A DNA stretch of 38,871 nucleotides, from assembly GCA_030620115.1 (NCBI GenBank), contig JAUXFG010000015.1:1-38871 (forward strand), in the 5' to 3' direction. Below the pieces are notes generated by a model that was not told the DNA's origin, made no database searches, and saw only the letters and a list, made by a program, of their open reading frames with translations. The DNA is from Candidatus Fermentibacterota bacterium (GTDB lineage: Bacteria; JAFGKV01). The translations under genes and the position numbers were made by a program. Below, piece by piece: positions 2,571 through 35,705 of this stretch. Positions within the stretch are counted from its first letter, which is position 1. Each line of letters starts with the position of its first letter.

Positions 2571-2573
2571 CGC

Positions 2574-3341
2574 CTACCTCCCATGCCGCGCTGCCAGAAG
2601 CTGGGCAGACAGAAAGAGAGGGAAAAAGATCAGACTCAGCAAGAAAACAATGTGTTTGGTATCAATGATTCCTTTGGCAAACTCCTCGTAATGAGAGAGC
2701 ACCGAGAGGTACTCAAGCACGTTGGAGAGAGTACCCTCCGTCACAATCGATGCCCAGTTCACCACCCATAGGAGGAGAAGGAAACCAAAGGTGGCCACGG
2801 CTGCCACGATCTGGTTCTCACTTGCTGCTGAAGCCAAGAGTCCACAAGAGACAAATGCCGACCCCAAGAGAAAAAGCCCTAGTACCGAGGTCAGCATGGG
2901 CCCTGGGTCGGGGTCGCCGATGAGCAGGCAAATGAGGGGATACGCAAAGGAGAGAAGCGCGAGCACGCCAATCATGCCCACGGCAGCCAGGAACTTGCCC
3001 AAAATCACATGCCACGGGGAAACCGGCGCGGTGAGAAGAAGCTCTGCCGTGCCGCTTTTCCGTTCCTCTGCCACGAGTCTCATGGTAATCATAGGAATCA
3101 CCATGAGCAGGATCAGGCTGAGATTCATGGAGAACGGGCGCAAAACCATGTCATTGATGTTTATCTCGCTCTCGGGATACCCATACTGTGCCAGTTGGAA
3201 CGATACCATGCTGAAATGCGAGATCATGACGTAGAAGAAAAAGCCCCCGATGAGAAGAAAGACCGTGATGATCACATAGGCCATAGGGGAAAGGAAGTAT
3301 CCCTTGAACTCCTTCAAGAAGATTGTACCAATCTTACTCAT
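2574..3341 (-). CDS. ABC-2 family transporter permease (GldF-like)
   Basis: 255 aa polytopic hydrophobic protein. Its start overlaps the stop of the upstream ATPase gene by 4 nt. Confidence 0.8.
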   Translation of the reverse strand: MSKIGTIFLKEFKGYFLSPMAYVIITVFLLIGGFFFYVMISHFSMVSFQLAQYGYPESEININDMVLRPFSMNLSLILLMVIPMITMRLVAEERKSGTAELLLTAPVSPWHVILGKFLAAVGMIGVLALLSFAYPLICLLIGDPDPGPMLTSVLGLFLLGSAFVSCGLLASAASENQIVAAVATFGFLLLLWVVNWASIVTEGTLSNVLEYLSVLSHYEEFAKGIIDTKHIVFLLSLIFFPLFLSAQLLAARHGR

Positions 3342-4282
3342 TGCCGCTCCTCCCGGGTGAGTTCCAAGAATACATCCTCCAGGCTGGTTCCGCTGGGCAA
3401 GAGACTCCTCAGGCCCCAGCCCTGTTCCACTATGGCCTGGACCAGCCGTTCCCGAAAGAGCGGCTCGGCAGGGATACGCAGCTCGGCGACATTTATCCCT
3501 TGGTCATCTGCGGTGAGAGTGACCAACTCCGTATTCTGGAGCGCGTTGAGGAAAGCGCGTACGTCATCCTCAGGGCCCCGAACCTCCAGCTTCACGGGAA
3601 GTGCACCCTCCATCCTCGAGATCAGACCTTGGGTCGTATCTTGGGCCACCACCGTGCCTTGATGGATGATCGCGATCCTGTCGCATGTGGCGCCGACTTC
3701 CGACAATATGTGCGAGCACAGTATGACCGTGTGATCTCGACCAAGCTCTTTGATGAGCTTCCTCACTTCGTGGATCTGTTTGGGATCAAGGCCGACCGTG
3801 GGTTCATCCAGAATCACGACCTTTGGATCATGCACAATGGCCTGGGCGAGTCCGATTCGTTGCCGGTACCCCTTGGAAAGCCCTTTGATAAGCCGATGTT
3901 GTACAGAGCCGATTTCACATCGCTCGATCACCGAATCAAGAGCGGCATGTCGCCTCTCCTTGGGCACCTCCTTGAGTGCCGCCATATATTCGAGGAATGC
4001 CCTGGCCGTCATCTCCGTGTACAATGTCACATTCTCTGGGAGATACCCGATTGAGCGCCTCACATCCATTGACTGCCCGGGTATATGATACCCTGCCACT
4101 GATACGCTTCCCTCGTCTGGGGAAAGAAACCCTGTCAAGATCCGCATGGTGGTCGTTTTGCCTGCAGCGTTCGGTCCGAGGAAGCCGAGGATCTCATGTC
4201 GCTGTACACAAAAATTCACCCCGTGGAGCGCCTCAACTTCACCGAATCGCTTGTGAAGATCCTTCACATCTATCATCGTCAC
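3338..4282 (-). CDS. ABC transporter ATP-binding protein (GldA-like)
   Basis: Walker A motif GPNAAGKTT, ABC signature LSKGYRQR, Walker B VVILDEPT. Confidence 0.9.
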   Translation of the reverse strand: MTMIDVKDLHKRFGEVEALHGVNFCVQRHEILGFLGPNAAGKTTTMRILTGFLSPDEGSVSVAGYHIPGQSMDVRRSIGYLPENVTLYTEMTARAFLEYMAALKEVPKERRHAALDSVIERCEIGSVQHRLIKGLSKGYRQRIGLAQAIVHDPKVVILDEPTVGLDPKQIHEVRKLIKELGRDHTVILCSHILSEVGATCDRIAIIHQGTVVAQDTTQGLISRMEGALPVKLEVRGPEDDVRAFLNALQNTELVTLTADDQGINVAELRIPAEPLFRERLVQAIVEQGWGLRSLLPSGTSLEDVFLELTREERQ

Positions 4283-4317: not shown

Positions 4318-4947
4318 TTATGGGGACCTCGGGTGGTCCCCCGTGGCTGTGGTACGCCGAGCGCGTGATCTGCGCCAGGTCAGGTAGATGAATATCAGCG
4401 CCAGCGCGGCCAGCGCCAAACCCGCCTTGCTGATGAATGAAATGACCTCAAGCCAGTACATCCCCACGGAGTAACCACCAGCCACAAGTATGGTCTGCCA
4501 CATGATGACGGCTATCGCCACGGCCCATGCAGCCCGGCCGAACCGCATCCGGGCAAGCCCGGCGGCCAGGATGATCAAAGATCGAACGCCTGGTATGAAC
4601 CGAGAGAGGATCACGATAATAGTACCCCGTTCTCGAACCAGGGATCGCGCCCGATCCATGGAACTCGATCGGGACAGCCAGCCCATGAATCCACTACGGG
4701 GGGTATCAGCCCACGTACGGCCGAGAGCCCACAACAGGAGTGCCCCGAGATAGCTCCCGAGGATTGAAAGCACCAGAACAAAAACAAGCGCGCGCTGCTG
4801 CCTGGCAGCGGCAAAACTGCAGAACACGATTACCGTATCTCCTGGATAAGGAGGGAATATTGTCTCAACAAATGAAGAGATGAATAGGATGTAGTAGATA
4901 TGATCGAGAGGAATGCTATCTATGAACCGAAGAACCTGATCCTGCAC
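4318..4947 (-). CDS. DedA/VTT-domain (SNARE-associated) inner-membrane protein
   Basis: Motif YILFISSFVETIFPPYPGDTVIV followed by multiple TM helices. Confidence 0.75.
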   Translation of the reverse strand: MQDQVLRFIDSIPLDHIYYILFISSFVETIFPPYPGDTVIVFCSFAAARQQRALVFVLVLSILGSYLGALLLWALGRTWADTPRSGFMGWLSRSSSMDRARSLVRERGTIIVILSRFIPGVRSLIILAAGLARMRFGRAAWAVAIAVIMWQTILVAGGYSVGMYWLEVISFISKAGLALAALALIFIYLTWRRSRARRTTATGDHPRSP

Positions 4948-5420
4948 TATTCAACAATGGCAACAGCAATGGCCGCCGCGCCCTCTCCTCTTCCGATGGC
5001 CCCTAATCCTTCCTGTGTGGTTGCTTTTACTGAAACGGATTCTCTCTCAATACCAAGCGCTGAAGAAATCTCGGCACGCATGGCCTCACGAAAGGGTGCG
5101 ATTTTGGGTTCCTCCAAGATGACGGTGGCGTCTACCTGCCTGATGGACAAGCCCCGTGCCGCGACCAACCTTTGCACATGGCTCAGAAGTGTGGGGCCGC
5201 GTACGCCCTTCCATTTCGGATCATTGGGCGGGAAATGCTCGCCGATATCTCCATGCGCGGCAGCGCCGAGGACCGCATCCGCTATGGCATGGCAGAGCAC
5301 GTCCCCATCGGAATGTCCCTGAAGGCCTTTGGGGTAATCCAGCTTGATCCCCCCGAGAAAAAAGGCCCGGCCTGCAACGAATGCGTGGACATCATAACCA
5401 AGACCAATCCTCATCCTCAT
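4947..5420 (-). CDS. ispF: 2-C-methyl-D-erythritol 2,4-cyclodiphosphate synthase
   Basis: GLGYDVHAF...GHSDGDV...HAIADAVLGA, the conserved metal and substrate-binding motifs of IspF; 157 aa. Confidence 0.95.
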   Translation of the reverse strand: MRMRIGLGYDVHAFVAGRAFFLGGIKLDYPKGLQGHSDGDVLCHAIADAVLGAAAHGDIGEHFPPNDPKWKGVRGPTLLSHVQRLVAARGLSIRQVDATVILEEPKIAPFREAMRAEISSALGIERESVSVKATTQEGLGAIGRGEGAAAIAVAIVE

Positions 5421-6138
5421 TCCTCCTAGCGGTCAGCCATGGGGCCAAGGCTCGCGCCATATCCAAATCATCCTGCGTCGTAATCTTGAAACAGAATACG
5501 CTTCCCTTCACCATACAGGGTGGGGCTCCCAGGAGTTCCGCGCCAACCGCTTCATCAGTGGGCGAGGCTCCTTCTGTCTCGGGCGCATCGAGGACGCGCT
5601 GGAGAAGCTCCCTAGAAAATGCCTGGGGTGTCTGTGCCCGATACAGAACGGATCGATCGACCGTTCTCTCCACCATGGTGCCACTGCTGCTTCTCTTGAG
5701 AGTATCCACCACGGGGAGAACGGCCAGCGATGCCGATGATTCCGCCGCTGCCCACGCCACGGCTCTCAATACCGAGAGTGGAAGAAAAGGTCGCGCGGCG
5801 TCATGCACCACCACAATACGGGTCTCGGCGGGGACATGTCGCAGCCCCGCGGCCACGGAATCTCGCCTCCGTGCTCCTCCTTGACACACCACTATCGTAC
5901 TGCCCGTCTGTGTGGGGACTGATCGTCGGACAGCCCCCACACATGCCTGGGGCACTACCACCACTACACCGTGGACACCTGCTGCCAAGAACGATTCCAA
6001 TGCAAATGAGTAGAGCGGCTTTCCGCCTAGCTCCCTGAACTGTTTCGGCGTGGCCTGTCCCAGGCGGATGCCCATCCCTCCGGCTGCCAGGATGGCCCAA
6101 GTCCCTTTCGGGATTCCCCGGCGTACCCCATCCCGCAT
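5392..6138 (-). CDS. ispD: 2-C-methyl-D-erythritol 4-phosphate cytidylyltransferase
   Basis: N-terminal AILAAGGMGIRLG nucleotide-binding motif; 248 aa; overlaps ispF as in many ispDF operons. Confidence 0.9.
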   Translation of the reverse strand: MRDGVRRGIPKGTWAILAAGGMGIRLGQATPKQFRELGGKPLYSFALESFLAAGVHGVVVVVPQACVGAVRRSVPTQTGSTIVVCQGGARRRDSVAAGLRHVPAETRIVVVHDAARPFLPLSVLRAVAWAAAESSASLAVLPVVDTLKRSSSGTMVERTVDRSVLYRAQTPQAFSRELLQRVLDAPETEGASPTDEAVGAELLGAPPCMVKGSVFCFKITTQDDLDMARALAPWLTARRNEDEDWSWL

Positions 6139-6361
6139 CGTCTACATCCCCTCCTGTGCTAGCGAAGCTGCGCCTTGGACCGACGAGCGATGATGCCATA
6201 GCCCATTGATCGAGGCGCAGCGATACCGGTTGCTTGATGCTTGATGCTGGATGCTGGATACCCCCTTCCCGCAAGCAGGATCAAGCATCACCTCGCAGCT
6301 AACCCACAAACGTCGCTGTAAACTTGACTCGTTTGTCAAGTCTCCAACCTATTGAAGACAG

Positions 6362-7750
6362 CTAGTGGGCATAATGAATGAGCGAAAGCACGTTGGCCGC
6401 CAGCGCCAGAAGAAGCCCGCCGCCCAAAGGAATCGATCTCCTATTCCATCCGAGGAGTGCGATCCACCCCAATTGCAGCAGGTAGACAATCGGTGCAACG
6501 CACGGCATGAGAAACCGGCCCTGTGGATGCGGAAAATCAATGTTATACCGGTACACGCCCACGAGGAGAAGGAAGAACGCCAACCCAAGAAGGCCGATCT
6601 CTCGCCTGATGGCCCCAGGGAGTTGCCACCGGATCTTCGCAACAGCTGGTACAAGAAGCGCCGCCACGGCAAGCGCCAACAAGAGCTTCGCGAGAAACCC
6701 GCTCACCAAGGGTGACCACGCGCTGAACCACGGCACCGCCAAGGGCCAACCCAAGAAGGCCACGACTCCACCACCCAGAAGCGCCCCCGCCAATCGACCG
6801 TACCGGCTCGACCAGCGAGCCGCCATCAAACCGGCAACGCCCGGGGCCACAGTCATGGCCAAGAGGATATACACGGATGGGGACGCTGTCTGGCGGGCGG
6901 CCGGCCCAAACGCCGCCCAGAACGATCGCCATAACTCCACCGCCACGGCGTAGAGATACTCCGGTGTGATGCGAGCCCTTCGCACCAGCGCCATGGCGGA
7001 AGCCATCTGCTGCTGCCAACCCAGCGGATCTCCGTAGAGAAGCCAGTTTCGCCAGAACCACCATCCTGTCAAAAGAAGCAGGACCAGGAAAAGGCGTCCC
7101 GAAAGCCGGATCACTTCCTCCAACGACAACCTTTTCTCAGTGAGAAGCCGCATCCACGCGATGAGGAGGTATGGAATAAGAAACAGCCCTGAGAGCTTGC
7201 TCAGCACTGCAGCGGCTACGAATCCGCCCATCCACCACGAGCGAGCGCCACGCCACCTCCGAGGCTCCACGCCAAGATACAGGACAACCGCCACGGCGAG
7301 CTGCACCATGGCGCCATTATTGACAGTCGCCGAAAGGTAGGAGAACATGGGTAACAGCCCCGCAGTGGCTGCCATGCTCGCGGCCTCGAGCCTGCGCCCC
7401 GGAAAAAGCCTGAGGGCGATACCGTAGTATGCCAATACACTTCCAAAACCCATGAGAAGGGAGAGCCATCGTAATCCCCAACCAAGCCCCAAGACAGGAG
7501 ACGCCAGGGCGGCAATCATGTAGTAGAGGGGTGGTTGATGCCCCTCCGCCGATCCGACTTGAGATGAAAAGCTAAGCACTGGAAAGGAGCGTTCTTCTAC
7601 AAGCACCTTCACATAACCGACGTGAGCCTCTTCATCGGGTCCATGGCCCGGTGGAAGAGATATGATCCATGCGGCGCCCAACACAAATGGCAGAAGAAGA
7701 AGCAGACCAGGAAGGATCTTCCTCGTCGCGGCATCACCTCTCCAGTGCAT
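6362..7750 (-). CDS. Polytopic membrane protein, GT-C-fold glycosyltransferase-like (DUF2142-like; PDEEAH motif in the first extracytoplasmic loop)
   Basis: 462 aa with more than 10 predicted TM helices. Acidic motif after TM1 as in GT-C enzymes that use polyprenyl-phosphate-sugar donors. Confidence 0.55.
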   Translation of the reverse strand: MHWRGDAATRKILPGLLLLLPFVLGAAWIISLPPGHGPDEEAHVGYVKVLVEERSFPVLSFSSQVGSAEGHQPPLYYMIAALASPVLGLGWGLRWLSLLMGFGSVLAYYGIALRLFPGRRLEAASMAATAGLLPMFSYLSATVNNGAMVQLAVAVVLYLGVEPRRWRGARSWWMGGFVAAAVLSKLSGLFLIPYLLIAWMRLLTEKRLSLEEVIRLSGRLFLVLLLLTGWWFWRNWLLYGDPLGWQQQMASAMALVRRARITPEYLYAVAVELWRSFWAAFGPAARQTASPSVYILLAMTVAPGVAGLMAARWSSRYGRLAGALLGGGVVAFLGWPLAVPWFSAWSPLVSGFLAKLLLALAVAALLVPAVAKIRWQLPGAIRREIGLLGLAFFLLLVGVYRYNIDFPHPQGRFLMPCVAPIVYLLQLGWIALLGWNRRSIPLGGGLLLALAANVLSLIHYAH

Positions 7751-7773
7751 TGCAGTCCTCCTGGAAGCGGGAA

Positions 7774-9033
7774 TCAGTCATGGATCGAGCTTCTCTTTGG
7801 GAGCGGCTCATCATGCCTGGCTAACCAGGCGAGATGAAGAAGGCATGCGGTAAGCACGGTACGGAATGCACCCACCAGTACCCCGCCAAGCTTGAGCCTA
7901 TCCAGGAGTTCCATGGGATGAGGCCAACTATCAAACCTAGAAGGTGAGAGCACGGAGAAAAGCAGGACCGATGCTTCGCGATCGAACTGGAAGGTATAGA
8001 ACATCACGCAGACCGCCATGAGCCACGTCAAGGGAACTACCCGATTCCTCGATACCCGCTGAAGCGCAAGAAAGGGTACTGCCCACACGATCCACTGGGG
8101 GTGGAAATAGGTGGATGCGAAAAACCAGTACATCAGCCACGCGCCCCATCGCCACATATCATTTGCTCCGGCAGGACGAGAGGCATCAATAGAAGTCAGA
8201 TAAAGAAGGGCTACGCCCAGCGGAAAGAGGTAGATGACGTCTGCCTGCAGCAATGGCACATACGCCGCGAACAGGAATTTCCTGTGCGGCATGGTAAGCA
8301 GACTCAACAGTTCCGCGCTGTCCCGGAACGCCGCCCATGAGCTCGCCTGTAGAAACTGCAGAACCAGCACCGCGGCGAGAGGAATAACCACCATGGCACA
8401 CAGAGAGAGCCGCTCTCTCTTCCCCGACGGCACGAGCCATAGGTAGAGCGGCACGAGAAGGACGGCGTAGAATCGAAGCAGTGTAGCGAAAACAAGAGCT
8501 ATCAATCCGAGCATGGGCCGCCCACGTGAAAGCGCAAGAATGCAAAGGAGAATGAGAAGTACCGGGAAGCTCTCATACCTTCCATACAGGTGTACGCCGT
8601 AAAGGATGAGTGGGTTGAAAAGCCAGTAGAGAGCCAACGATTTCCTCGAATCAGGCGCCACCATCAGCAAGAGCACGTAGAGCGCGGCCAGTTCGGCAAA
8701 AAGGTAGGGGACCTTCAGCAGTATCAAGAAGACCCACGCATGAGGATGGCCGGCAAGAGCCCTCCAGCCTGTCTCATAGTCAAAGGGCTGGATCCAGAGA
8801 CTCTCAGGGATAAGATGGGCCAAACGAAGCAGCCAGAGCCACACAACATGCACGATGTGCGCAAGAAACTGATTGTGCTCGATAGCCTTTCCATGGTACA
8901 CCGCTTCATGAGCTCGCCAGTAGATGGAGTAGAGATCCCCGTGGAAGCCGATGCCCATGAGAAGCAGCCGTAGGGCGCCTGCAGGCACGAGCCACCATCT
9001 CGGAATGCCGAAAGACTTCATCGCGCTCACCAT
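7774..9033 (-). CDS. Polytopic membrane protein, GT-C-like (DUF2029/GT87-like mannosyltransferase family)
   Basis: The ORF track gives 7774..9504, but the first ~150 codons are low-complexity Arg/Gly-rich and non-protein-like. The start was trimmed to the ATG at 9031–9033 (MVSAMKSF...), directly abutting the stop of the upstream gene. Multi-TM, His/Trp-rich loops. Confidence 0.5.
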   Translation of the reverse strand: MVSAMKSFGIPRWWLVPAGALRLLLMGIGFHGDLYSIYWRAHEAVYHGKAIEHNQFLAHIVHVVWLWLLRLAHLIPESLWIQPFDYETGWRALAGHPHAWVFLILLKVPYLFAELAALYVLLLMVAPDSRKSLALYWLFNPLILYGVHLYGRYESFPVLLILLCILALSRGRPMLGLIALVFATLLRFYAVLLVPLYLWLVPSGKRERLSLCAMVVIPLAAVLVLQFLQASSWAAFRDSAELLSLLTMPHRKFLFAAYVPLLQADVIYLFPLGVALLYLTSIDASRPAGANDMWRWGAWLMYWFFASTYFHPQWIVWAVPFLALQRVSRNRVVPLTWLMAVCVMFYTFQFDREASVLLFSVLSPSRFDSWPHPMELLDRLKLGGVLVGAFRTVLTACLLHLAWLARHDEPLPKRSSIHD

Positions 9034-10622
9034 ATCGTGCTGGGTGACAACCAATCGAAATTGTTCCATAGCCTGACAATCACGTACAAATTGTAGGCAA
9101 TAGCGAGGGCAACCACAACCCCGATCACTCGTCTCATGCGCTTCCCCAGGTGACTGAGCATTGAAGCGGCGACCCCCGTCATGGGAACTATGGTAAGCAT
9201 GAGGTGCTTTGTTTGCCGCCAATCCGTCACCGAAGCGAGGACCCACCCCAGCACCGCCCAGAGGGAGAGAAAACGAAGTCGTCCGCCTTTCCACACACCC
9301 CAGAGTACTCCGACCACTCCAAGCAGCAAGAGTGGCGGTGTGAGATTCCTCGCCCATTCCGCCCACAGTCCACCGATTCCCGGATACCATGCCCCGCCAG
9401 CGCTCCCCAGTGAGAGATCCTGGAACAAGAACCGGTCTCGGAAATCGTAATAGACATGATCTCGGAGGAAGGTGGACCAGTCCACGAGCGCACCGTATGT
9501 CCACCAGAGTGCCGTGCCCATGGCAGCGCCCCGGAGCCAGGGTTGTCTTAACGCCCGGAAAAGACCGGTCTTTCCCTGGATCACAAGATAGACGGCATAG
9601 AGCGCAGGCACGAAGAGCATCTTCTGGTTCGTGAGAGCCAAAAGCATGCCGGTGAACAGCAGCGCTCTGGAAGAGCGACCTTCGCGCCCTAAAAGCAGCA
9701 GGGCCGAAAGGGCCAAGAGGACCGTACTCGGCGCCGTGAACCCGGCATACCCGGCCCGAATCACCACTTCCGGGAGTGTCAGATAGACAAATCCTGCGCC
9801 CAATGCCAAGGTGGCCGAAGCGCCCAATGTCAAGGCAAGATGAGAGAGGAGCAGCGGTGCGATGGCCCCATAGAGGATCGGCAGAAGGCGCGTTGCCCGT
9901 ACCAGACCAAGATTCATATCAAAACACTCGACATCCCTCTTGCGAAACCTCTTGATCGCCCAATGTGCCTCATCACGGAGCTCGACTATTCTGCCGCTCT
10001 GCCAGTAGAAGTATGCCGGTTCAAGCCAGTCCAGGAGCAAGAGACATGCCCCTGCCTGGAGATGATACAGCGGCGGCTTGGAGAAGATGAAAGCGAAGTG
10101 CGTCTCGGTTCCATATGGTTTCCCGTGCTGAAGGTACCCATATGTGGGATTCGCGATCACCATGTCTTGATCCTGCTGCGGAGGAACGATCCACATGGCC
10201 GAGGCATACGTCACCAGGAGACCCGCGGCAAAAAGCGCCAGCACCCTTCTGTCGAGACCAACAAGGGCGTGGATCAATCGACTGCCGAGTTGCCCCACAT
10301 GTCCTGGCCGGGCAACCGTGGCCACCAGCAGCAGAAACCATAAGAAGACCCACGCATGCCAAGAGCATAGATGGAGATCCGAGAGCCGTGCACCGATCAA
10401 CCCCAGGAGCAGAATACCACTGCTGACCGCAGCCGCTTCGGCCCAATATGCCCACGACAAGCGGCGGGGCAGTTTGATGAACAGCAACCCGGGGAACAGC
10501 AAAACCAAACCGGGGATCAAGATGGCGGTGGGGATGCCGAAAGGGACGTAGCGTGAGCACGCGTACGCCAGCCCCAGGGCGACGTGGCTTGCCAGGACGG
10601 CGCTCAGGCGGTTCACCGCCAC
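9027..10622 (-). CDS. Polytopic membrane glycosyltransferase-like protein (GT39/GT83 ArnT/PMT-like GT-C family)
   Basis: 531 aa with ~12 TM helices and a large C-terminal extracytoplasmic portion. Start is 1 nt after the GT2 stop. Confidence 0.55.
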   Translation of the reverse strand: MAVNRLSAVLASHVALGLAYACSRYVPFGIPTAILIPGLVLLFPGLLFIKLPRRLSWAYWAEAAAVSSGILLLGLIGARLSDLHLCSWHAWVFLWFLLLVATVARPGHVGQLGSRLIHALVGLDRRVLALFAAGLLVTYASAMWIVPPQQDQDMVIANPTYGYLQHGKPYGTETHFAFIFSKPPLYHLQAGACLLLLDWLEPAYFYWQSGRIVELRDEAHWAIKRFRKRDVECFDMNLGLVRATRLLPILYGAIAPLLLSHLALTLGASATLALGAGFVYLTLPEVVIRAGYAGFTAPSTVLLALSALLLLGREGRSSRALLFTGMLLALTNQKMLFVPALYAVYLVIQGKTGLFRALRQPWLRGAAMGTALWWTYGALVDWSTFLRDHVYYDFRDRFLFQDLSLGSAGGAWYPGIGGLWAEWARNLTPPLLLLGVVGVLWGVWKGGRLRFLSLWAVLGWVLASVTDWRQTKHLMLTIVPMTGVAASMLSHLGKRMRRVIGVVVALAIAYNLYVIVRLWNNFDWLSPSTIW

Positions 10623-10623
10623 G

Positions 10624-11367
10624 CTATCGCCTGAAGCGCAGCTTGGAGAATCTCAGCCGGAGAATGCCATGGATATCTTCGGACACTGCAGCCTTGATTC
10701 GAACGGTACTCCTCGGATCCTCCACCCACTTCACCGGGATCTCCTTGAGGCGATAGCCATTCTTCTCCGCCAATACCAGCATCTCCGTGTCGAAGAACCA
10801 CTTGGTCCCCTGTATCCGCGGCACAACCTCCGTCACGAAATCCCTGGTGGCAGCTTTGAAACCACACTGCGCGTCGCGGAAATGCACATTGAGGCAGATT
10901 CGAAGAAGCAGGTTGTACCCCCGCGAAAGAATCTCCCGGGCCGGGGACCGTTCTATCTCCGCGGCTGGGTGCAGCCGGCATCCGGTGGAGAGGTCGTATC
11001 CCTCCTCCAGTGATCCTACGAGCTCTTCAAGCGCCTCAAGATCAGTGGACAGGTCGACATCCATGTAGCAAAGAATATCCGCGTCAGAGGCGCTCCATAC
11101 CTGTCGCAAAGCGCGGCCCCGCCCCTTCTCAGGAATCCATACGTACTTCACCTGAGGGAACTCGGCCGCCAACCGCTCTGCGATCATGGGGGTTCCATCT
11201 ATGGATCCATTGTCCGCCACCACCACCCGCCATTGAAAACGAGGGAGGGTTTGCACATGTGACAGCACACGCCGAACGCTCTGTTCAAGGTCACGTTCTT
11301 CGTTGTATACGGGGATCACGATATCAACCGTGGACATTCGATTCATGTTGCTTCCGCTCCCGGTCAC
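10624..11367 (-). CDS. GT2-family polyprenol-phosphate glycosyltransferase (dolichyl-phosphate mannose synthase / Ppm1 / ArnC-like)
   Basis: VDIVIPVYNEE...VVADNGSIDGT...DVDLS motifs (DXD). 247 aa soluble catalytic domain without a TM anchor. Confidence 0.85.
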   Translation of the reverse strand: MTGSGSNMNRMSTVDIVIPVYNEERDLEQSVRRVLSHVQTLPRFQWRVVVADNGSIDGTPMIAERLAAEFPQVKYVWIPEKGRGRALRQVWSASDADILCYMDVDLSTDLEALEELVGSLEEGYDLSTGCRLHPAAEIERSPAREILSRGYNLLLRICLNVHFRDAQCGFKAATRDFVTEVVPRIQGTKWFFDTEMLVLAEKNGYRLKEIPVKWVEDPRSTVRIKAAVSEDIHGILRLRFSKLRFRR

Positions 11368-11388
11368 TGTCTGCCCCCTACTGTGCGA

Positions 11389-12330
11389 TCATTGCGGCGC
11401 CAGCATTGCCTCGACGAAACGTTCGGGGGAAAACGGCTCGATATCATCGATTCCCTCTCCCACGCCAAGCCATCGAACAGGGAGGCCAAGTTCACGAATG
11501 ATAGGGACAACCACACCGCCCTTGGCCGTCCCGTCAACTTTCGCAAGAAAAATGCCGTCAAGCTCCAGGACTTCATGAAACAGCCGTGCCTGTGAAACTG
11601 CGTTCTGTCCTACCGTGGCATCCAATACCAGAAGGGACTCGTGCGGCGCGCCGCTGTGGGCCTTGTTCACTACACGCCGAATCTTGGCAAGCTCGTTCAT
11701 GAGATTGACTTTCGTATGCTGCCGGCCAGCCGTGTCCAGCAATACCACCGAATGGCCACGGGCCTTCGCCGCGGTCACTGCATCAAAGGCGACGCTGGCC
11801 GGATCCGCGCCTGGCTTCTGTGCCACCAGATCCGCCCCGGCCCGCTGTGCCCAGATGGCCAACTGCTCCACCGCCGCCGCGCGAAAGGTGTCCGCCGCGC
11901 CCACCATGACCCGGTGACCTTCTTTCGCATAGTGGCGAGCGAGTTTTCCCAGCGACGTGGTCTTCCCTGAACCGTTCACCCCTGCGATAAGGACCACATA
12001 GGGTGCAACGCGCTCCTCCGGTTCCGCCAGGGGAGGAGGGACAGGCGCGCGCATCAGATCGAGCAACTGCTTTCTAATGACCCCCACAAGCTCTTCCAAA
12101 GACGGTCCGGGGGACGTGCGCAGGTATTCTTCCAACCTGTCTCGAATGATGACTGCCGCCTCCACGCCCACATCAGCCTCGATCAAGCGCTGCTCCAACT
12201 CCTCAAGAGCATGCTCCCGTTCGGCTCCTCGTGTAGTGCGGAGCCGTTCCAGCCCTCTACCGAGTACCTCTCTTGTCCTTCTGAGACCGCCGCGCAGTCT
12301 ACCAAATGCACCTGTCACCATGTTCCGCAC
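11389..12330 (-). CDS. ftsY: Signal recognition particle receptor
   Basis: SRP54-type GTPase: GVNGSGKTTS (G1), DTAGR (G3), NG-domain architecture, 313 aa. Confidence 0.9.
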   Translation of the reverse strand: MRNMVTGAFGRLRGGLRRTREVLGRGLERLRTTRGAEREHALEELEQRLIEADVGVEAAVIIRDRLEEYLRTSPGPSLEELVGVIRKQLLDLMRAPVPPPLAEPEERVAPYVVLIAGVNGSGKTTSLGKLARHYAKEGHRVMVGAADTFRAAAVEQLAIWAQRAGADLVAQKPGADPASVAFDAVTAAKARGHSVVLLDTAGRQHTKVNLMNELAKIRRVVNKAHSGAPHESLLVLDATVGQNAVSQARLFHEVLELDGIFLAKVDGTAKGGVVVPIIRELGLPVRWLGVGEGIDDIEPFSPERFVEAMLAPQ

Positions 12331-12519
12331 CTACATCTATGCCAACATCCAATGTCGAAGAGGGGCTCTTCCATTGTATGTTCGATGTTGGACGTGCGAT
12401 GTTCAATTCCTCACAAGTCTGCAAATCGGCAACCCGCGTCCCGCGGGACAGTAAAATCGTATTCTCGGTCACCAGCCATGATCGCCGGTGACTATGCAGA
12501 GGAAACTTGCCACTCATCA

Positions 12520-12676
12520 TAGGAATCGCAAGGCCCTTTATGATCTTCAAAAGGGTTATCCCGGACTTCTCACCGGCTTTCGTCGCGAAGCGGTGGAGTT
12601 GGCGGTGGCTGTCCCGCACCCAACGCTTTGGGTGCGGGATGAGAAATGCGGGTTATAGGTTATCCCGGACACCCTT
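12520..12676. repeat. REPIN-like composite repeat. Inverted copy of module 'cttcgcgacgaaagccggtgagaagtccgggataaccc' (12553–12590), then perfect hairpin cccgcacccaa-cgct-ttgggtgcggg (12613–12638), then module 'gagaaatgcgggtta'
   Basis: Same modules recur at 31897–31970, 33530–33700, 37540–37590 and 38366–38450. The six-frame track translates them into pseudo-similar peptides (HRFATKAGEK.., HRFETKAGEK.., SRLATKAGEK..) in different frames. Confidence 0.7.
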
Positions 12677-13073
12677 CTCACAAGAGAGATTCCACCGCGT
12701 GATTGCGGCGATTGCGAGAATGGAATGAGGGAAGACTGGCTCCCATCGATGAAACGGACACAAGACTGCCTCGCGCAGTCTCGTTGTTCTACGACTGCAA
12801 TTGTACAACGAAGTAGGACAAGATTCCTCGCCCCCGTGAACCCAAAGTAGATTCCGTCGATCTATACTGCGAACCTCCTGCCTGCAGTAGTCATGAATCT
12901 GTGGAAGTATGAGCCGCTCTTGACATGAGGAACTATCGACATATAGATTCGGCGTCTATCATCTTTTTTCGTACATTGACTGTCTGATGTTCATGTAGAT
13001 GGAGAGCAAGAAACCCCCGTATTGACACAGGCAGTCCGGATGCCACAAGCACTCTTATTGAGGAGGAAATGAT

Positions 13074-13517
13074 ATGGCAAAGACCATGGTTGAAATGGCA
13101 GCGGAGATTGTTGGAGCCCAGGCGGCTTCGGGCAGGATGTCACCGGAGGAACTCTCAAACTCCATCCACAGAGTGTATGATTCATTGGTGGAGGTTCAGA
13201 GAAAAGAGAAGCTGGCGGAGACGGAGCCGGAAGACGTTAGCGGACTGGGGCAGCTTCGGGCTCGACCGGAAAAATCGATTACTCGCGCGCACGTCATCTG
13301 TCTCGAGTGCGGGATGAAGTTCAAGCAGCTCACGGCCAGACATCTGGCGACCCACGGCGTGTCTCCCGCGGATTACCGCGCCAAATGGGGCTTCACCAAG
13401 AGACAACCCCTTGTCGCCAAGCAGCTTTCTGCCCAGCGTCGCAAGACGGCACTGGACAACAAGCTTGGTGAGCGTCTCGCAGAGGCTCGCCGTCAACGTT
13501 TGGCAGAGAGAGGCTAA
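13074..13517 (+). CDS. MucR/Ros-family C2H2 zinc-finger transcriptional regulator
   Basis: ICLECGMKFKQLTARHLATHGVSPADYRAKWG matches the Ros/MucR zinc-finger and DNA-binding signature. GGAGG RBS 7 nt upstream of the ATG. Long AT-rich upstream region with TTGACA-like -35 elements. Confidence 0.85.
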   Translation: MAKTMVEMAAEIVGAQAASGRMSPEELSNSIHRVYDSLVEVQRKEKLAETEPEDVSGLGQLRARPEKSITRAHVICLECGMKFKQLTARHLATHGVSPADYRAKWGFTKRQPLVAKQLSAQRRKTALDNKLGERLAEARRQRLAERG

Positions 13518-13692
13518 CCCTCCGGTTCCCGCGGGCAGAGGCCTGAGCCAAGCTTTGCTCCGAAAGAGGAACAACAGGCGAGAGTGAGGACCAGCCTCGC
13601 AAGGGAGGCCTCTTTCTCGTCTGAAGTGGATGTATCCTCCCGGTACATGCGACCATGGGAGGAGTCCCAAAAATCGAATGAACCGCTCCAAG

Positions 13693-13732
13693 CCGGTCTT
13701 CGGAACTTGCTTCCGGAGACCGGTTTGTCTTT
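13693..13732 (+). terminator. Putative rho-independent terminator: 11-bp stem ccggtcttcgg / ccggagaccgg (one G·U), 9-nt loop, followed by TTTGTCTTT
   Basis: Read directly from the sequence; lies between the mucR-like gene and tatD. Confidence 0.5.
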
Positions 13733-13893
13733 AATTGCTGAACGTGAGGTCGTATCCTGTTGGCGATCTCTCTATTCGGGGTCGAGGAGTATTTCCGATT
13801 TCTGGTTCTTGCCCCTGCATCCGGAGCCCTTCCTTATGGGACGCGAGGTGGCTGCGGAGAACACTCATTTTCATAGGAGATCCGGAGGGCTGA

Positions 13894-14676
13894 ATGGCTC
13901 GCAGAACAGTCTACGCAGACGCACATTGCCATCTTGATCAACTCGAAGATGCGCCAAAGGAGATCGCTGCCGCCAAGAAGCTCGGTGTGAAGCGTTTCCT
14001 TTCCAACAGCGAGGATCTGGCCTCCATGAAACGTAACCTCGCGCTGGCTCGTGAATTCCCGGGCGTGGTACTCCCGGGGTTGGGCATTCATCCGGCGGAA
14101 TTGGTAGGCCAGGATGACAAAACAGTTGCGGCGGAGCTGGATTTCATCAAGGCGCATGTAGAATCTGCCTCGTTTCTCGGTGAGATCGGCCTTGATTTCC
14201 TGCATGCCGCCACTCCAGTCCAACAGGATCGACAGAAGAAGATCCTCATCGAGCAGTTCGAGGTTGCGGCGGCGGCCGACCTCCCCGTGGTCATCCATTC
14301 CCGCCGTGCACAGCGCCCTGCCATGAACGCCGCGTTTCGATATGTAGAAACATACGGCCGGCCGGTTCTTCTGCACTGGTTTACTCAATCGGTCAAATTG
14401 CTGCTCGAGGTGAATCGCCGACCAGGGATCTATATCTCGGCAGGCCCGGCAGTGCTTTTCAATGCAGGAGCTCGCAAGGTCGTTGCCCATGCCATACTCG
14501 ACCGGTTGCTGGTTGAGACCGATGCCCCCGTGCCGTTCGACGGCGAACCAGCTCGACCATCATGGATACCCCGAGTGGTGGAAACGATTGCAAGCATCTT
14601 CCGGATATCACCCGAAGACCTGGCAAAACAACTGAACAAGAATCTTGATCGCTTCTTAGGACTCGCGCAGAAATAA
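13894..14676 (+). CDS. tatD: TatD-family metal-dependent hydrolase/DNase
   Basis: N-terminal DAHCHLD motif, TIM-barrel hydrolase pattern, 260 aa. Confidence 0.9.
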   Translation: MARRTVYADAHCHLDQLEDAPKEIAAAKKLGVKRFLSNSEDLASMKRNLALAREFPGVVLPGLGIHPAELVGQDDKTVAAELDFIKAHVESASFLGEIGLDFLHAATPVQQDRQKKILIEQFEVAAAADLPVVIHSRRAQRPAMNAAFRYVETYGRPVLLHWFTQSVKLLLEVNRRPGIYISAGPAVLFNAGARKVVAHAILDRLLVETDAPVPFDGEPARPSWIPRVVETIASIFRISPEDLAKQLNKNLDRFLGLAQK

Positions 14677-14745
14677 GTTCGTAGTTATGGCACACAGATA
14701 TGCCGCAGATTGGGTCTCCCCCATGTAGGGGCATGCCGTGCCCAC
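14660..14745. repeat. Inverted partial copy of the composite element seen at 37200–37330: shared 'tg(c/t)gccataact..cttat(t)tctgcgcga(a/g)tcc' and 'catgcccctacatggg'
   Basis: Nucleotide similarity is visible directly. It is also reflected in pseudo-peptides CPYMGE.../AIT..LFLRES in ORFs 14656..14856(-) and 37201..37587(+). Overlaps the last codons of tatD. Confidence 0.6.
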
Positions 14746-15023
14746 CGGAGGCGTGGTATAGGCATCGCCCGAGTTCCGCGTACTGCGCGGGATACGCGAC
14801 GGCGGGACAAAGATGAGATGCGAGAATGTACAGGTTAGTCCTGGACAAGCCCTCAAGCGTGGGATAGCTTGAGGGCTCGGAAATTACACGATTCCCGAGA
14901 ATGGAATGTTAGGAGAGGGATCTCGGAGAAGAAGGAGCAGAGCCTTTTCCCTTCCAACCGATTGTTCCATCACTCCAGTGCCCCAATTGCGGCCTCCATC
15001 CCATAGGAGATGAGGAGGAGGAG

Positions 15024-16868
15024 ATGCTTCTAGACCAAGCCCACTGTCCGGAGACGCCGGGGCCGGATCGAGACGAACTGGTGACTATACGGAAAGCCCG
15101 CGCATTCTTCCCCCAGGCCAAGGAATTGGCGCTGCTGCGCAGAGCATGCAATACCTGGAGAACCAAGAAGACTGGCGTTGCGCTGGAGATTGACCTGTTC
15201 CCGCCCAAAATTCCCTGCCGCTTCCGGAAAATCTGTGCCATCACCGTGGTATCCGACGACTGGCCTGGCATGGGTGAGACATGCCTTGGCATTGTGCACG
15301 AGCGCGGCTGGAATGTCCACTATGCCCAAGGCATGGTTCTCCAGGAAAACGACCAAGACCTGGGCGTGTTCATCATGGCAATCGGCATTGAATCGGATGA
15401 GGGGCTCCGGCAAATATCCGCGGAGCTCAAGGACATTGAGTCGGAGTTGCTGAGCCTGAGCATTGGAAGGCGTGCGAAAATGCTGCTCATCGCCAAGGAA
15501 GCGAAGAAGCTGGCGCTCCTGAGCAAAGTGGTTGAGGAATTGGCCAAGCTTTCCAGCGGCAAAGAGCTCCAAGAGATCATCGCGCCCATGGGAGAATCGA
15601 CAAAGTTCTTTGCGGCACGGACAGATGAGTACATGCATGCCTGGTCACCGGCGGTGCTGGCATATCAGATCACCACGAACTATGGATTGCTCAAGAAGGT
15701 GCGAGCATCCGGTGGTTTCGGTGTGATCCGAGTAGAGAACTGCCAGGCAGCAAACGAAACAAGAACGTGTATCACCGTGGTGGGCCTCGTACGGGACATA
15801 TCGGTGGAAGAGACGCTCCGGGTCGTGGGTGAGCGCCTGGGGTTCCATGAGCAATACCATTTGATTGAGTTTACGACCCAGGATGGACTCAACCTGGTCC
15901 GCTTGGAAATTGGGCAGGCTGGAGGCCGGGAGCTTTCGGTTGCCCAGGTCAAAGAACTCGAGCTCAGCCTCAAAGAAATGCTCTCGGGCCAGCGGGTTGC
16001 CTGGGCACACAGAATCGAGTCCAGGGGAGGCTTCGAGCAGTATGTCAGAGCAATCATACCATTGCTCCTGAAAGAACATGCAGCCACCGGGCTCCCTCAA
16101 GTATATATGTCCCCCACGTCACGCGAGAAGACCGTGGCGAGTTTCAAGGTGATCTTTGTTTATTCTACGCCCGTCGGCCAAACCGCACCGTCGATACGCC
16201 TCCCAGAGTTGTTGCAGGTACTGCCCGGTGTCCAGGTCGTCTCGTCATCGAGTCCAAGGATCATGGGGGATCAGCGTCTGTTCGTCATGAACATCAATGT
16301 TGATCTCACCAAATTCAAGGATACCGAGGACATCTATCACACATTGCGAAAGCAGGTTCACGAGGTCTTCTCGGAATTCCGTGATTTCGATGAGGGAATG
16401 CGCCTCGGTGACATGACGAAGCTCAAGGAAATCGAGGATGCGCTCTCCGGGTATGACCTACGAATCGTGAGTAGGATCTACTACGCCATCGATGATTTCT
16501 CGCGGCTCAGCATGAGCCGGGATGAAATCGTCCGCCTTCTTCGGCTTGGACTGTCGGCTCTCTCTGAACTGGATGCGCGAACCGAACCCGATCCCTCGCC
16601 CGTGATCTATGATGAACGACTCAAGAATCATCATGGAGAGGTGATCTCGGCGCTGTTGGCAATCGTCTCGCCCCAGGGACGGGGTATCCCGAGCTGCATT
16701 CGAGAATTATCATCGCAGGCCCAGGTCACCGTCAGTCAGATCCGGCATGGCGACGGCGAGCTCCTCTTGTGCCGCATCACGGGCATGGGAGGAAATCCTC
16801 CCGATGAGTCCGCGATACAGGATGTCCTCCAGTGTATTGCGGGGATGCAGTGTCACGACTGGCACTAA
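15024..16868 (+). CDS. Hypothetical protein built from ~4 ACT-like (βαββαβ) regulatory repeats; no catalytic domain recognised
   Basis: Repeated segments such as ITVVSDDWPGMGETCLGIVHERGWNVHYAQ, CITVVGLVRDISVEETLRVVGERLGF and KVIFVYSTPVGQ...VQVVSSS. GAGGAGG RBS upstream of the ATG. Confidence 0.55.
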   Translation: MLLDQAHCPETPGPDRDELVTIRKARAFFPQAKELALLRRACNTWRTKKTGVALEIDLFPPKIPCRFRKICAITVVSDDWPGMGETCLGIVHERGWNVHYAQGMVLQENDQDLGVFIMAIGIESDEGLRQISAELKDIESELLSLSIGRRAKMLLIAKEAKKLALLSKVVEELAKLSSGKELQEIIAPMGESTKFFAARTDEYMHAWSPAVLAYQITTNYGLLKKVRASGGFGVIRVENCQAANETRTCITVVGLVRDISVEETLRVVGERLGFHEQYHLIEFTTQDGLNLVRLEIGQAGGRELSVAQVKELELSLKEMLSGQRVAWAHRIESRGGFEQYVRAIIPLLLKEHAATGLPQVYMSPTSREKTVASFKVIFVYSTPVGQTAPSIRLPELLQVLPGVQVVSSSSPRIMGDQRLFVMNINVDLTKFKDTEDIYHTLRKQVHEVFSEFRDFDEGMRLGDMTKLKEIEDALSGYDLRIVSRIYYAIDDFSRLSMSRDEIVRLLRLGLSALSELDARTEPDPSPVIYDERLKNHHGEVISALLAIVSPQGRGIPSCIRELSSQAQVTVSQIRHGDGELLLCRITGMGGNPPDESAIQDVLQCIAGMQCHDWH

Positions 16869-16917
16869 CGCACACTTCCTTGTCCGAGACTCCACTCGTC
16901 ATACACACCCCTGATCA

Positions 16918-17886: not shown

Positions 17887-17899
17887 GAAGGAGAATTCA

Positions 17900-21808: not shown

Positions 21809-21816
21809 GGAGAAGC

Positions 21817-25315: not shown

Positions 25316-25541
25316 GTCTGTGCGACAACGCATCACCATCATGAATTCATCCGCTGGAGGGCCACGCTCCGTCGTGGCCGCCTATGCCGCATACCTCGGA
25401 CGCGATGGAACGCGTCCCTCCATCATAGAAAGCAGGAACGGGAGAAGGTTGGATGCACTGGCCTATTGAGAACCCACCTGGATTATGATCAATCCGCTTC
25501 GGCGCAGCCCTCTCATCGCCAAGTTTCGTGCAGAGTCCCGC

Positions 25542-26666: not shown

Positions 26667-26940
26667 AGCGAAGGGTCATCCAACTTGAGAACACCAGGGG
26701 GCTCAAGACGAGCCACATGGCCAACAGCAGCGCCGTGACCCCAAGGCTCCTGATTACGACATAGCTCCCGAAGCCGACGACCAGCGTGACGTACGCGACG
26801 CCGAACGCGGCGAGATGGAATCTCCTTGCATCCACGTACAGCGCGGCCCTACACCATCGGCATGTGTAGCGCTGACCCGGTTCCCAGGTGAATACGGCGG
26901 AGAGGGAGGGCCTCCTGGAGCACGACGGGCAGAGTGCCAA
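26620..26940 (-). CDS. Small zinc-ribbon plus 2-TM membrane protein (DUF983-like), questionable
   Basis: CPSC...CRWC followed by two hydrophobic helices. Its 3' end overlaps the ispH 3' end convergently by ~47 nt, which lowers confidence. Confidence 0.35.
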   Translation of the reverse strand: MALCPSCSRRPSLSAVFTWEPGQRYTCRWCRAALYVDARRFHLAAFGVAYVTLVVGFGSYVVIRSLGVTALLLAMWLVLSPLVFSSWMTLRFNSDNPSPKAAAHHP

Positions 26941-26941
26941 A

Positions 26942-34820: not shown

Positions 34821-34827
34821 AATCGGC

Positions 34828-34981
34828 ACTCCTTGTCTATACCGCCCGGAATGTTCCGTCGCTTCAGGATGTACCGATCCCCAGACGTCACCGTCACCGC
34901 CGTGGCACTTCCCCAATAGGAGTCAATCGGTTCGTTCGAGACGACGTCGCCTATATCCCAAGATGCGAGCAAGTCCTTCAT
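34828..34981 (-). pseudogene. 5' fragment (about 50 codons) of an APH/homoserine-kinase-type-II family phosphotransferase gene, truncated at the transposase-unit boundary
   Basis: MKDLLASWDIGDVVSNEPIDSYWGSATAVTVTSGDRYILKRRNIPGG matches the N-terminal nucleotide-binding lobe pattern of APH/HSK-II kinases. Protein-like sequence stops where the 23-bp IR begins (34820). Confidence 0.4.
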
Positions 34982-35462: not shown

Positions 35463-35464
35463 GA

Positions 35465-35698: not shown

Positions 35699-35705
35699 GC
35701 GACAC

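Follow-up and report, generated by a model that had tools for sequence, protein, structure and literature searches.

Gene content of the locus

The window, i.e., the whole 38,871-nt stretch of contig JAUXFG010000015.1 (Candidatus Fermentibacterota bacterium, GCA_030620115.1), contains four tightly packed minus-strand genes at 6362–11367 in the order GT2s, M1, M2, and M3. They encode a small glycosyltransferase and three membrane proteins. These coordinates and the common strand agree with an earlier note on this DNA, as does the position of ftsY upstream and of ispD and ispF downstream on the same strand. The following features were annotated:

11389–12330, minus strand: ftsY (SRP receptor), the first co-directional gene; TIGR00064, 2.9e-98, above cut-off
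10624–11367, minus strand: GT2s, 247 aa, GT2 glycosyltransferase without TM helices, putative polyprenyl-phosphate monosaccharide synthase; PF00535, 1.9e-25
9027–10622, minus strand: M1, 531 aa, predicted GT-C fold, family without a model
7774–9033, minus strand: M2, 419 aa, predicted GT-C of the ALG3/ALG6/PIG-M/PimE structural class
6362–7750, minus strand: M3, 462 aa, putative GT-C, placed via its relatives in the PMT_2/DUF2142 neighbourhood
6139–6361: M3–ispD spacer, 223 nt, with an inverted repeat (cttgac-aaacga-gtcaag) and short direct repeats
5392–6138, minus strand: ispD; TIGR00453, 2.3e-59, above cut-off
4947–5420, minus strand: ispF; TIGR00151, 1.1e-57, above cut-off
4318–4947, minus strand: DedA-family (VTT domain) membrane protein, candidate polyprenyl phosphate recycler; PF09335, 1.5e-16, above cut-off
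1044–4282, minus strand: ABC ATPase, ABC-2 permease, and GldG-like auxiliary protein; Pfam and NCBIfam matches
13074–22953, plus strand: divergent cluster encoding MucR/Ros, TatD, an apparently soluble 614-aa protein, a radical SAM/SPASM protein, a Phosphodiest-family lipoprotein, a second radical SAM protein, a 345-aa GT2, and a GmhA-GmhB fusion

The DedA-family gene (4318–4947) did not figure in the earlier account of the locus. Rfam, tRNA, and tandem-repeat scans of the window revealed nothing relevant.

Intergenic distances were 21 nt (ftsY–GT2s), 1 nt (GT2s–M1), −7 nt (M1–M2), 23 nt (M2–M3), 223 nt (M3–ispD), −29 nt (ispD–ispF), and −1 nt (ispF–DedA). This spacing is operon-like, and the string is putatively co-transcribed, less surely so across the 223-nt spacer. 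No consensus terminator was found in that spacer. Relatives show either an M3–ispD overlap or a gap of 16 nt, versus 223 nt here. A 576-aa ORF (7774–9504) was ruled out as the M2 gene because 478 nt of it overlap M1 and because alignments with the M2 homologs (405–434 aa) start at the ATG at 9033 or 9021. Either of these codons, the former overlapping the M1 stop, is a plausible start. The 614-aa protein (15024–16868) was considered as a fourth GT-C and rejected, since no long hydrophobic stretch was seen in its sequence, which looks like that of a soluble protein.

The putative glycosyltransferases

A GT-A-type GT2 domain with a DXD motif was present in GT2s, its MDVDLS (D103-V-D105) being aligned with MDADLQ of Dol-P-Man synthase (DPMS). 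The protein was most similar to the DPMS/ArnC/GtrB group, with P. furiosus DPMS (5mlz, 5e-15) as the best PDB sequence match, followed by ArnC and GtrB. The best NCBIfam matches were PgfS, AglJ, ArnC, and Dol-P-hexose transferase; as all these equivalog scores were far below cut-off, no specific sugar can be assigned to GT2s. TM helices were not found in a hydropathy scan (no 19-mer above a Kyte–Doolittle threshold of 1.5), and the C-terminal TM anchoring of GtrB, ArnC, and archaeal DPMS was absent. A basic amphipathic C-terminus (residues 215–247) could be read from the sequence. In lacking TM helices, GT2s resembles Ppm1 and DPM1, which are TM-less polyprenyl-P-mannose synthases. PF00535, the PDB matches, and hydropathy thus back the earlier description of a Ppm1/ArnC-like protein without TM helices, and GT2s probably charges a lipid carrier with a sugar.

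Each of the three membrane proteins contains a conserved Asp motif just past a helix that follows a basic flank, and the positive-inside pattern would place the acidic-motif loops of all three in the periplasm. For M1, the basic loops 49–56 and 105–124 suggest this location. None of the three matched PDB sequences on its own, and M1 and M3 had no direct sequence or profile matches to PDB. No match to Pfam or NCBIfam was obtained for M1, M2 (including PF09594 and PF26314), or M3 even at E 0.1. The three proteins had been described as mutually dissimilar, with which the hhalign comparison of their families agrees: M1/M2 and M2/M3 gave nothing significant, and M1/M3 was marginal (E 4e-4, probability 34%). 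The reading in the earlier note would have been refuted had they classified as transporters or O-antigen ligase/polymerase (Wzy/WaaL-type) proteins; all three were placed with GT-C instead, M3 through its relatives. The labels that the note gave them (GT39/83, GT87, and DUF2142) hold as approximations but not as memberships, since M1 belongs to no described family, and M2 and M3 reach the labelled families through distant relatives only.

M1 begins with about 145 residues of extra helices, followed by VPPQQDQD (146–153); TDWRQTKH (466–473) lies near the C-terminus. Among 60 members with 18–54% identity, D151 was invariant and D153 was conserved in at least 90%. The predicted fold of M1, polytopic and with conserved acidic residue(s) after the first core helix, matches solved GT-C enzymes, ArnT (PDB 5f15) being the best structural match; by this fold M1 is a putative GT-C. 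Membership in the described GT-C families (PMT_2/GT39, GT83, GT87, DUF2142, YfhO, and others) was not found. One of 15 M1 members matched Mannosyl_trans4 (E 0.0048), and the M1 family profile retrieved nothing from PDB sequences at E 10. The family is small and sharply defined (282 clusters at 50% identity), its hallmarks being VPPxxDxD, DWRQTKH, and the family-wide extra N-terminal helical module. It is rare and is represented by no Pfam or NCBIfam model and no solved structure. The M1 members of 712–759 aa were inspected for a GT2–M1 Rosetta-stone fusion, and their extra N-terminal 230–270 residues contained no Pfam domain; other fusions in the family bear TPR or PA14 domains.

M2 contains the motif GFHGDLYS (H31, D33) after TM1, its first outer loop bearing a conserved Asp. 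Its predicted fold is that of the ALG3/ALG6/PIG-M/PimE class, which makes M2 a putative GT-C. A GT87 match (1.2e-7) was found only in the most distant M2 relative, P0029 (26% identity); another relative, P0028, matched MptA_B weakly, and the M2 profile matched PIG-M.

M3 contains GPDEEAH (D39, E40), whose D-E motif falls in the loop that follows TM1, as well as HQPPLYY. Residues P38, D39, E40, and H43 were invariant in 20 sequences. Among the 20 aligned relatives, PMT_2 was matched by 11 (best 1.3e-13), PMT by 4, and DUF2142 by 3; relatives with 58–63% identity matched PF13231 and carry the names GT39 (NCBI) or ArnT-like (JGI). M3 is thus a putative GT-C only through its relatives.

Gene neighbourhood in relatives

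M1–M2–M3 were syntenic in every close relative with enough flanking sequence. The gene ftsY precedes M1 in all six close-clade loci and in none of the 51 distant M1 loci. The linkage with ftsY, ispD/ispF, and DedA was likewise conserved only in the Fermentibacteria/Eisenbacteria-like clade (0/51 distant loci); being limited to the close clade, it is weak evidence of shared function. The gene string with ftsY and the MEP genes reported in the earlier note is real as an arrangement, but the linkage is absent from the 51 distant loci. ABC ATPase, ABC-2 permease, and GldG-like genes were also syntenic in the clade (L001, L028, L029). GT2s was missing from the operon in four of the six clade relatives (L003/L010, L009, L028, and L029), where the order is ftsY-M1-M2-M3-ispD-ispF. 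This contradicts the donor synthase as a fixed part of the operon, and GT2s may not be dedicated to making the donor of all three GT-Cs.

Neighbours in the distant loci were counted as domain hits on stop-to-stop ORFs, as longest-ORF and GC3 gene callers were unreliable at high-GC loci. A GT2s-like gene was found within 6 kb of the M1 homolog in 19 of 51 non-redundant distant loci from other phyla. In 12 of these 19 the GT2s match had E ≤1e-27; in eight of them the matches were 1e-58 to 1e-68, and the four of these eight checked by tblastn showed 45–48% identity. The DPMS-like GT2 gene next to M1, here and in 12–19 of the 51 distant loci, is indirect evidence that M1 may use a sugar donor linked to a lipid phosphate. 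M2-like genes were near M1 in one of the 51 loci and M3-like genes in three. Locus L004 has the order GT87-M1...GT2...PMT_2, its GT87 and PMT_2 genes not being detectable orthologs of M2 or M3; L013 has the order GmhB-GT2s-PMT_2/TPR-M1-Phosphodiest, and in L006 M1 is grouped with radical SAM, Phosphodiest, and GT2 genes. In four distant loci a GmhB-like phosphatase gene lies directly upstream of GT2s. Homologs of some genes of the divergent cluster (13074–22953) thus adjoin distant M1 homologs, and the cluster is possibly linked in function to the four genes.

Possible pathway and known systems

We consider it fairly probable that the four genes constitute an extracytoplasmic glycosylation module dependent on a polyprenyl-phosphate sugar. 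By homology, GT2s would be held at the inner face of the membrane by its basic amphipathic C-terminus and would use a nucleotide sugar to charge polyprenyl phosphate with a single sugar; as to its identity, we would guess at a hexose of manno configuration. The lipid-linked sugar would then be flipped to the periplasmic face. There the three non-homologous GT-Cs (M1 of ArnT-like, M2 of ALG3/PIG-M/PimE-like, and M3 of PMT_2-like type), given the folds predicted for M1 and M2 and the motifs of all three, would each use a lipid-linked donor and together glycosylate one or more envelope acceptors. The downstream DedA-family protein may bring polyprenyl phosphate, once released, back to the inner face, and ispD and ispF would contribute to isoprenoid supply in a general sense only. 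Since M1–M2–M3 belong to a clade-wide housekeeping operon, a constitutive envelope glycoconjugate is likelier than a variable serotype decoration.

Glycosylation systems of this kind need a lipid-sugar flippase. No gene for one was identified: flippases of the GtrA, SMR, or MATE type were not found among the window ORFs, and the operon itself has no room for such a gene. The 154-aa ORF at 26754–27218 looks spurious, and a 409-aa ORF encodes a secreted protein instead. The N-terminal module of M1 (~145 aa) was considered as a built-in GtrA-like flippase, an idea that found no support: neither Pfam nor PDB gave a signal for 20 family members or their profile.

Other readings of the locus were weighed. 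It is possible, though doubtful, that only GT2s and M1 form a real pair, a cassette present in several phyla, and that M2 and M3 are independent, with donors and acceptors of their own. The distant loci point this way, GT2s alone recurring beside M1 (19/51, against one and three loci with M2-like and M3-like genes), as do the GT87 and PMT_2 genes of L004, which are not detectable M2/M3 orthologs, and the different GT-C classes of M1, M2, and M3. However, these three genes overlap or abut and stay together in every close relative even without GT2s, and in mycobacteria different GT-C classes cooperate on one glycan. GT2s might also be a soluble GT-A enzyme whose substrate is a small molecule or a growing glycan (e.g., GpgS-like), with the GT-C donors made elsewhere. 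This would agree with the lack of a TM helix, a match to glucosyl-3-phosphoglycerate synthase (2.8e-11), and the absence of the gene from the operon in most close relatives; we regard it as improbable, because the GpgS match spans only residues 9–120, while those to DPMS, ArnC, and AglJ extend over about 200 residues, and the GT2s gene repeatedly adjoins a GT-C. TM-less polyprenyl-P-mannose synthases are, moreover, on record (Ppm1 and DPM1; PMC3485146, in part).

Modification of lipid A or LPS core sugars in the manner of ArnC/ArnT, affecting charge or resistance and excluding lipoglycan or protein glycosylation, is suggested by ArnT as the best structural match of M1, ArnC among the best matches of GT2s, the JGI ArnT-like label on M3 relatives, and the nearby GmhA-GmhB heptose gene. 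It seems unlikely: arnA, arnB, and arnD for Ara4N synthesis and ArnE/F are absent, the likeness to ArnT is at fold level only (14% identity), M2 falls into the mannosyl/glucosyl ALG/PIG-M class, and three different GT-Cs exceed the known needs of lipid A modification. Hardly credible is a non-catalytic role for at least one GT-C-fold protein, as a scaffolding or substrate-binding subunit comparable to PIG-U/GAB1, as the Asp motifs are invariant at the positions of GT-C catalytic residues and catalytic enzymes score higher.

A bolder extension of the four-gene module is offered as a long shot. M1 would found a new CAZy-level GT-C family that, in five or more phyla, works in a fixed pairing with a DPMS-like GT2 lacking TM helices; in this clade the pair, joined by M2 and M3, would produce a constitutive envelope lipoglycan, either lipomannan-like or containing heptose, in a lineage of diderm type, and the donor could be polyprenyl-phospho-manno-heptose. 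Two observations hint at such a donor: in four distant loci a GmhB-like phosphatase gene directly precedes GT2s, and the divergent cluster of the window contains a GmhA-GmhB fusion. To our knowledge, this donor has not been described previously.

The overall scheme is already known, but M1 belongs to a putative GT-C family that lacks a model. The recurrent pairing of this family with one subgroup of TM-less GT2s offers two defined genes for biochemical reconstitution. Its practical use is improved annotation plus a candidate for a new GT family; no new principle is involved.

Regarding lipid carrier recycling, DedA-family UptA is an undecaprenyl-phosphate transporter (Roney and Rudner, 10.1101/2022.02.03.479048), and by analogy with that work the DedA protein of the locus is a candidate for polyprenyl-phosphate recycling. 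Both share the VTT/DedA domain (PF09335, 61.4 bits for the protein encoded here versus a cut-off of 33.9), but against the UptA equivalogs the protein (3e-13) scored only 50.1 bits versus 250 and 48.2 bits versus 300. Other substrates have been proposed for DedA proteins, and the linkage here is limited to one clade. A literature search joining GT-C, DedA, and polyprenyl phosphate found no paper.

Compared with ArnT (GT83) from Cupriavidus metallidurans (5f15), M1 shows fold-level likeness only, at 14% identity; neither the M1 sequence nor the family profile matches 5f15, and M1 has about 145 additional N-terminal helical residues before the catalytic loop and motifs of its own, VPPxxDxD and DWRQTKH. 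ALG3, ALG6, and PIG-M (GT58/GT57/GT50) are eukaryotic ER GT-Cs using Dol-P-Man or Dol-P-Glc, whereas M2 is bacterial, shares 11–15% identity with them, and passes no Pfam model.

Lipid-linked monosaccharides serve as donors for extracytoplasmic glycosylation in several settings, namely the modification of lipid A, O-antigen seroconversion, the synthesis of lipomannan and arabinan, and the O-mannosylation of proteins. The mycobacterial and corynebacterial PIM/LM/LAM pathway depends on polyprenyl-phosphomannose and employs Ppm1 with PimE, MptA, MptB, MptC, and others. The comparison with mycobacterial lipomannan drawn in the earlier note fits M2, given its distant GT87/MptA_B-like relatives and PIG-M profile match. 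In contrast to that pathway, a Ppm2/Lnt-like partner, PimA/PimB-type GT4, and inositol genes were not seen here, M1 and M3 are not GT87, the host belongs to an FCB-type uncultivated lineage, and mannose is a candidate sugar.

In three-component systems (GtrA/GtrB/Gtr*, ArnC/ArnEF/ArnT, and Citrobacter youngae ORF15/14/12 with GT136), an enzyme at the cytoplasmic face charges polyprenyl phosphate and a GT-C transfers the sugar on the outer face; elaborate versions with several GT-Cs have been noted (PMC11127046). The present locus would follow the same general scheme, but with no recognisable flippase gene, with three unrelated GT-Cs instead of one, and with a GT2s that lacks the TM helices of GtrB and ArnC. 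Those systems lie in O-antigen or prophage loci; here, in Fermentibacteria/Eisenbacteria-like bacteria with chemically unstudied envelopes, the known logic appears in a clade-wide housekeeping operon with ftsY and ispDF.

Layout of the gene string

GT2s, a putative polyprenyl-phosphate monosaccharide synthase of the GT2 family, and the polytopic membrane proteins M1, M2 and M3 were encoded in one string of genes, given here in order of transcription.

12330-11389, minus strand: ftsY, first in the string
11367-10624, minus strand: GT2s (247 aa)
10622-9027, minus strand: M1 (531 aa)
Start at ATG 9033 or ATG 9021, minus strand: M2 (about 419 aa)
7750-6362, minus strand: M3 (462 aa)
6138-5392, minus strand: ispD
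5420-4947, minus strand: ispF
4947-4318, minus strand: DedA-family gene
Downstream of the DedA-family gene: ABC ATPase, ABC-2 permease and GldG-like protein

The genes from ftsY to the DedA-family gene were separated, in this order, by 21, 1, -7, 23, 223, -29 and -1 nt, and co-transcription of the string is plausible. The sole sizeable gap—223 nt between M3 and ispD (6139-6361)—is missing from relatives, and a search of it for a consensus terminator found none. An inverted repeat (cttgacaaacgagtcaag) lies in this spacer, together with short direct repeats (atccagc atccagc atcaagc atcaagc). A mechanically called ORF of 576 aa for M2 (9504-7774) was rejected: it overlapped M1 by 478 nt, and all homologs of M2 are about 419 aa long. 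The true start is almost certainly ATG 9033, overlapping the M1 stop codon, or ATG 9021.

Elsewhere in the window, ispH (LytB) was found at 25485-26666, about 19 kb from ispD and ispF, which makes three MEP-pathway genes in 38.9 kb. A B12-binding radical SAM protein was encoded at 31965-33506 (best matches, all sub-threshold, to HpnJ and the lipid-biosynthesis B12/radical SAM family), and a single protein at 33817-34782 combined an IS200-like Y1 transposase domain with a DnaA C-terminal helix-turn-helix domain. The following region of about 2.9 kb (34800-37690) had no ORF of at least 140 aa on either strand and a lower G+C content (~0.52); scans of it for Rfam families, tRNA and tandem repeats gave no match.

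The putative donor synthase and the three membrane proteins

GT2s matched PF00535 (1.9e-25), and its best NCBIfam matches were all polyprenyl-phosphate glycosyltransferases: PgfS, AglJ, ArnC and the haloarchaeal Dol-P-hexose transferase. All of these scores were far under the equivalog cut-offs; thus, no sugar can be assigned from them. The top PDB sequence match was the Dol-P-mannose synthase of Pyrococcus (5e-15, residues 13-214), whose MDADLQ motif was aligned with MDVDLS of GT2s; ArnC and GtrB followed. Since no hydrophobic segment was found in GT2s and its C-terminal end is a basic amphipathic stretch, the protein is nearer to the TM-less Ppm1/DPM1 type than to GtrB or ArnC. These data agree with the earlier note, which had described a Ppm1/ArnC-like GT2 without transmembrane helices.

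That note had labelled the membrane proteins GT39/83-, GT87- and DUF2142-like. These labels are not memberships, because none of the three proteins had a Pfam or NCBIfam match at E 0.1 or a meaningful match among PDB sequences (none at E 10 for M1 and M2, only chance-level matches at E 0.6 or worse for M3). Their broader placement in the GT-C superfamily of glycosyltransferases, rather than among transporters, ligases or polymerases, was upheld for M1 and M2 by predicted fold and for M3 via its relatives; the three are GT-C proteins from three different branches.

The AlphaFold model of M1 was confident (pLDDT 87.5, pTM 0.90), and Foldseek agreed on its predicted GT-C fold. A word-indexed search returned 15 M1 homologs; exhaustive HMMER searching of 1.84 billion representatives gave a family of 282 clusters. 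In an alignment of 60 sequences (18-54% identity), D151 was invariant, while D153, E285, R289, K334 and the DWRQTKH block were nearly so. A helical stretch of about 145 residues, comprising four transmembrane helices and one more, precedes the Asp loop, which is unusual among GT-C proteins; this N-terminal module is common to the whole family, with P44 and G45 invariant. The basic loops 49-56 and 105-124 suggest that the Asp loop lies outside. M1 is thus a GT-C protein by fold and motif, yet it stands outside every described sequence family. Its similarity to the M3 family by hhalign was marginal (E 4e-4), pairing VPPQQDQD of M1 with PPGHGPDE of M3, and SKPPLYH with HQPPLYY. Some proteins of the M1 family (among P0225, P0134 and P0123-P0198) carry fused C-terminal TPR repeats or a PA14 domain. 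In others, 230-270 extra N-terminal residues contain no known domain, and two members reach about 1550 aa.

The M2 model (pLDDT 80.7) matched ALG3 (22.9), ALG6 (22.5), PIG-M (22.2), PIG-U and PimE (16.5), and the family profile matched PIG-M at 3e-10; the most distant relatives of M2 touched GT87 and MptA_B. H31 and D33, located after TM1, were invariant. Among 20 relatives of M3, PMT_2 was detected in 11, PMT in four and DUF2142 in three; relatives with 58-63% identity were labelled GT39 (NCBI) or ArnT-like (JGI). The GPDEEAH motif of M3, also after TM1, was invariant.

Gene neighbourhoods within and beyond the close clade

In the close clade of Fermentibacteria/Eisenbacteria-like relatives (M1 identity of 54-58%; its named MAGs belong to Ca. 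Fermentibacteria and Ca. Eisenbacteria), the order ftsY-M1-M2-M3-ispD-ispF-DedA-ABC was kept, as was the divergent cluster on the opposite flank. The small GT2 was encoded only in the window and in loci L001/L002 (71% identity); it was absent from L003/L010, L009, L028 and L029. The MAGs whose operon lacks GT2s are FWPV01, JAFGKV01 and JALOPK01. The divergent cluster (13074-22953, plus strand), whose synteny with the GT-C operon extends through the clade, encoded a MucR/Ros regulator, TatD, a 614-aa soluble protein that fell in no family, a radical SAM/SPASM protein, a Phosphodiest-family protein bearing the lipoprotein-like signal LLACS, another radical SAM protein, a 345-aa GT2 and a fused GmhA-GmhB. 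Genes of these kinds are also found around the distant M1 homologs of L004, L006 and L013.

Beyond the close clade, 107 M1 loci formed 80 clusters at 80% identity; neighbours within 6 kb of M1 were counted in the 51 non-redundant loci with at least 3 kb of flank. A GT2s-like gene was present in 19 of them, an M2-like gene in one and an M3-like gene in three; therefore, the pair travelling across phyla is GT2s and M1. Twelve of the 19 GT2s-like neighbours matched at E <=1e-27, eight of them at 1e-58 to 1e-68, and four of these eight, checked by tblastn, had 45-48% identity and lay at most ~730 nt from M1. The link to ftsY and the MEP genes, also claimed previously, held in the close clade but not in the distant loci, where ftsY, ispD, ispF and DedA were found in 0/51. 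This linkage is a feature of one lineage and may reflect common descent rather than shared function.

Other GT-C genes also neighboured M1. In L004, the order was GT87-M1-...-GT2 (255 aa)-PMT_2. In L013 (5977-11988), a GmhB-like HAD phosphatase, a GT2s homolog, a PMT_2/TPR protein (799 aa), the M1 homolog and a protein homologous to the Phosphodiest protein of the window followed one another. The phosphatase also immediately preceded the GT2s homolog at the equivalent positions of L015, L018 and L023; L015 and L018 had, in the position of the PMT_2/TPR protein, an ORF of similar length (the domain scan covered the L013 protein). In L012, a Thermoanaerobaculia MAG, a GT2 (333 aa), an M1 homolog, an NAD-dependent epimerase/dehydratase (309 aa) and a GMC-type flavoprotein oxidoreductase (597 aa) were encoded at 6831-12685, an arrangement recalling DprE1/DprE2-style epimerisation of a lipid-linked sugar beside a GT-C.

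Proposed mechanism and comparison with known systems

GDP-Man and Dol-P-Man are used by the nearest characterised relatives of GT2s and M2, and often by PMT_2 relatives too; for this reason, mannose or a manno-configured sugar is our best guess. A heptose donor is a speculative alternative, hinted at by the neighbouring GmhB and GmhA-GmhB genes.

The best-supported reading is that the four-gene set follows the established scheme of periplasmic glycosylation from polyprenyl-phosphate monosaccharides (PMC11127046). GT2s would act at the inner face of the membrane, the lipid-linked sugar would be flipped across, and the GT-C enzymes, presumably sharing this donor, would transfer the sugar on the outside. 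The carrier would then be recycled, for which the DedA protein is a reasonable candidate, although its score is far under the UptA cut-off.

The scheme itself would not surprise a specialist; of moderate interest are the family of M1 and the GT2 that is its fixed partner. Three-component glycosylation systems share the same working scheme, but the flippase that they include was not found among the ORFs of the window. PPM-dependent lipomannan assembly has PI-anchor enzymes that the window system lacks, although the two would work alike.
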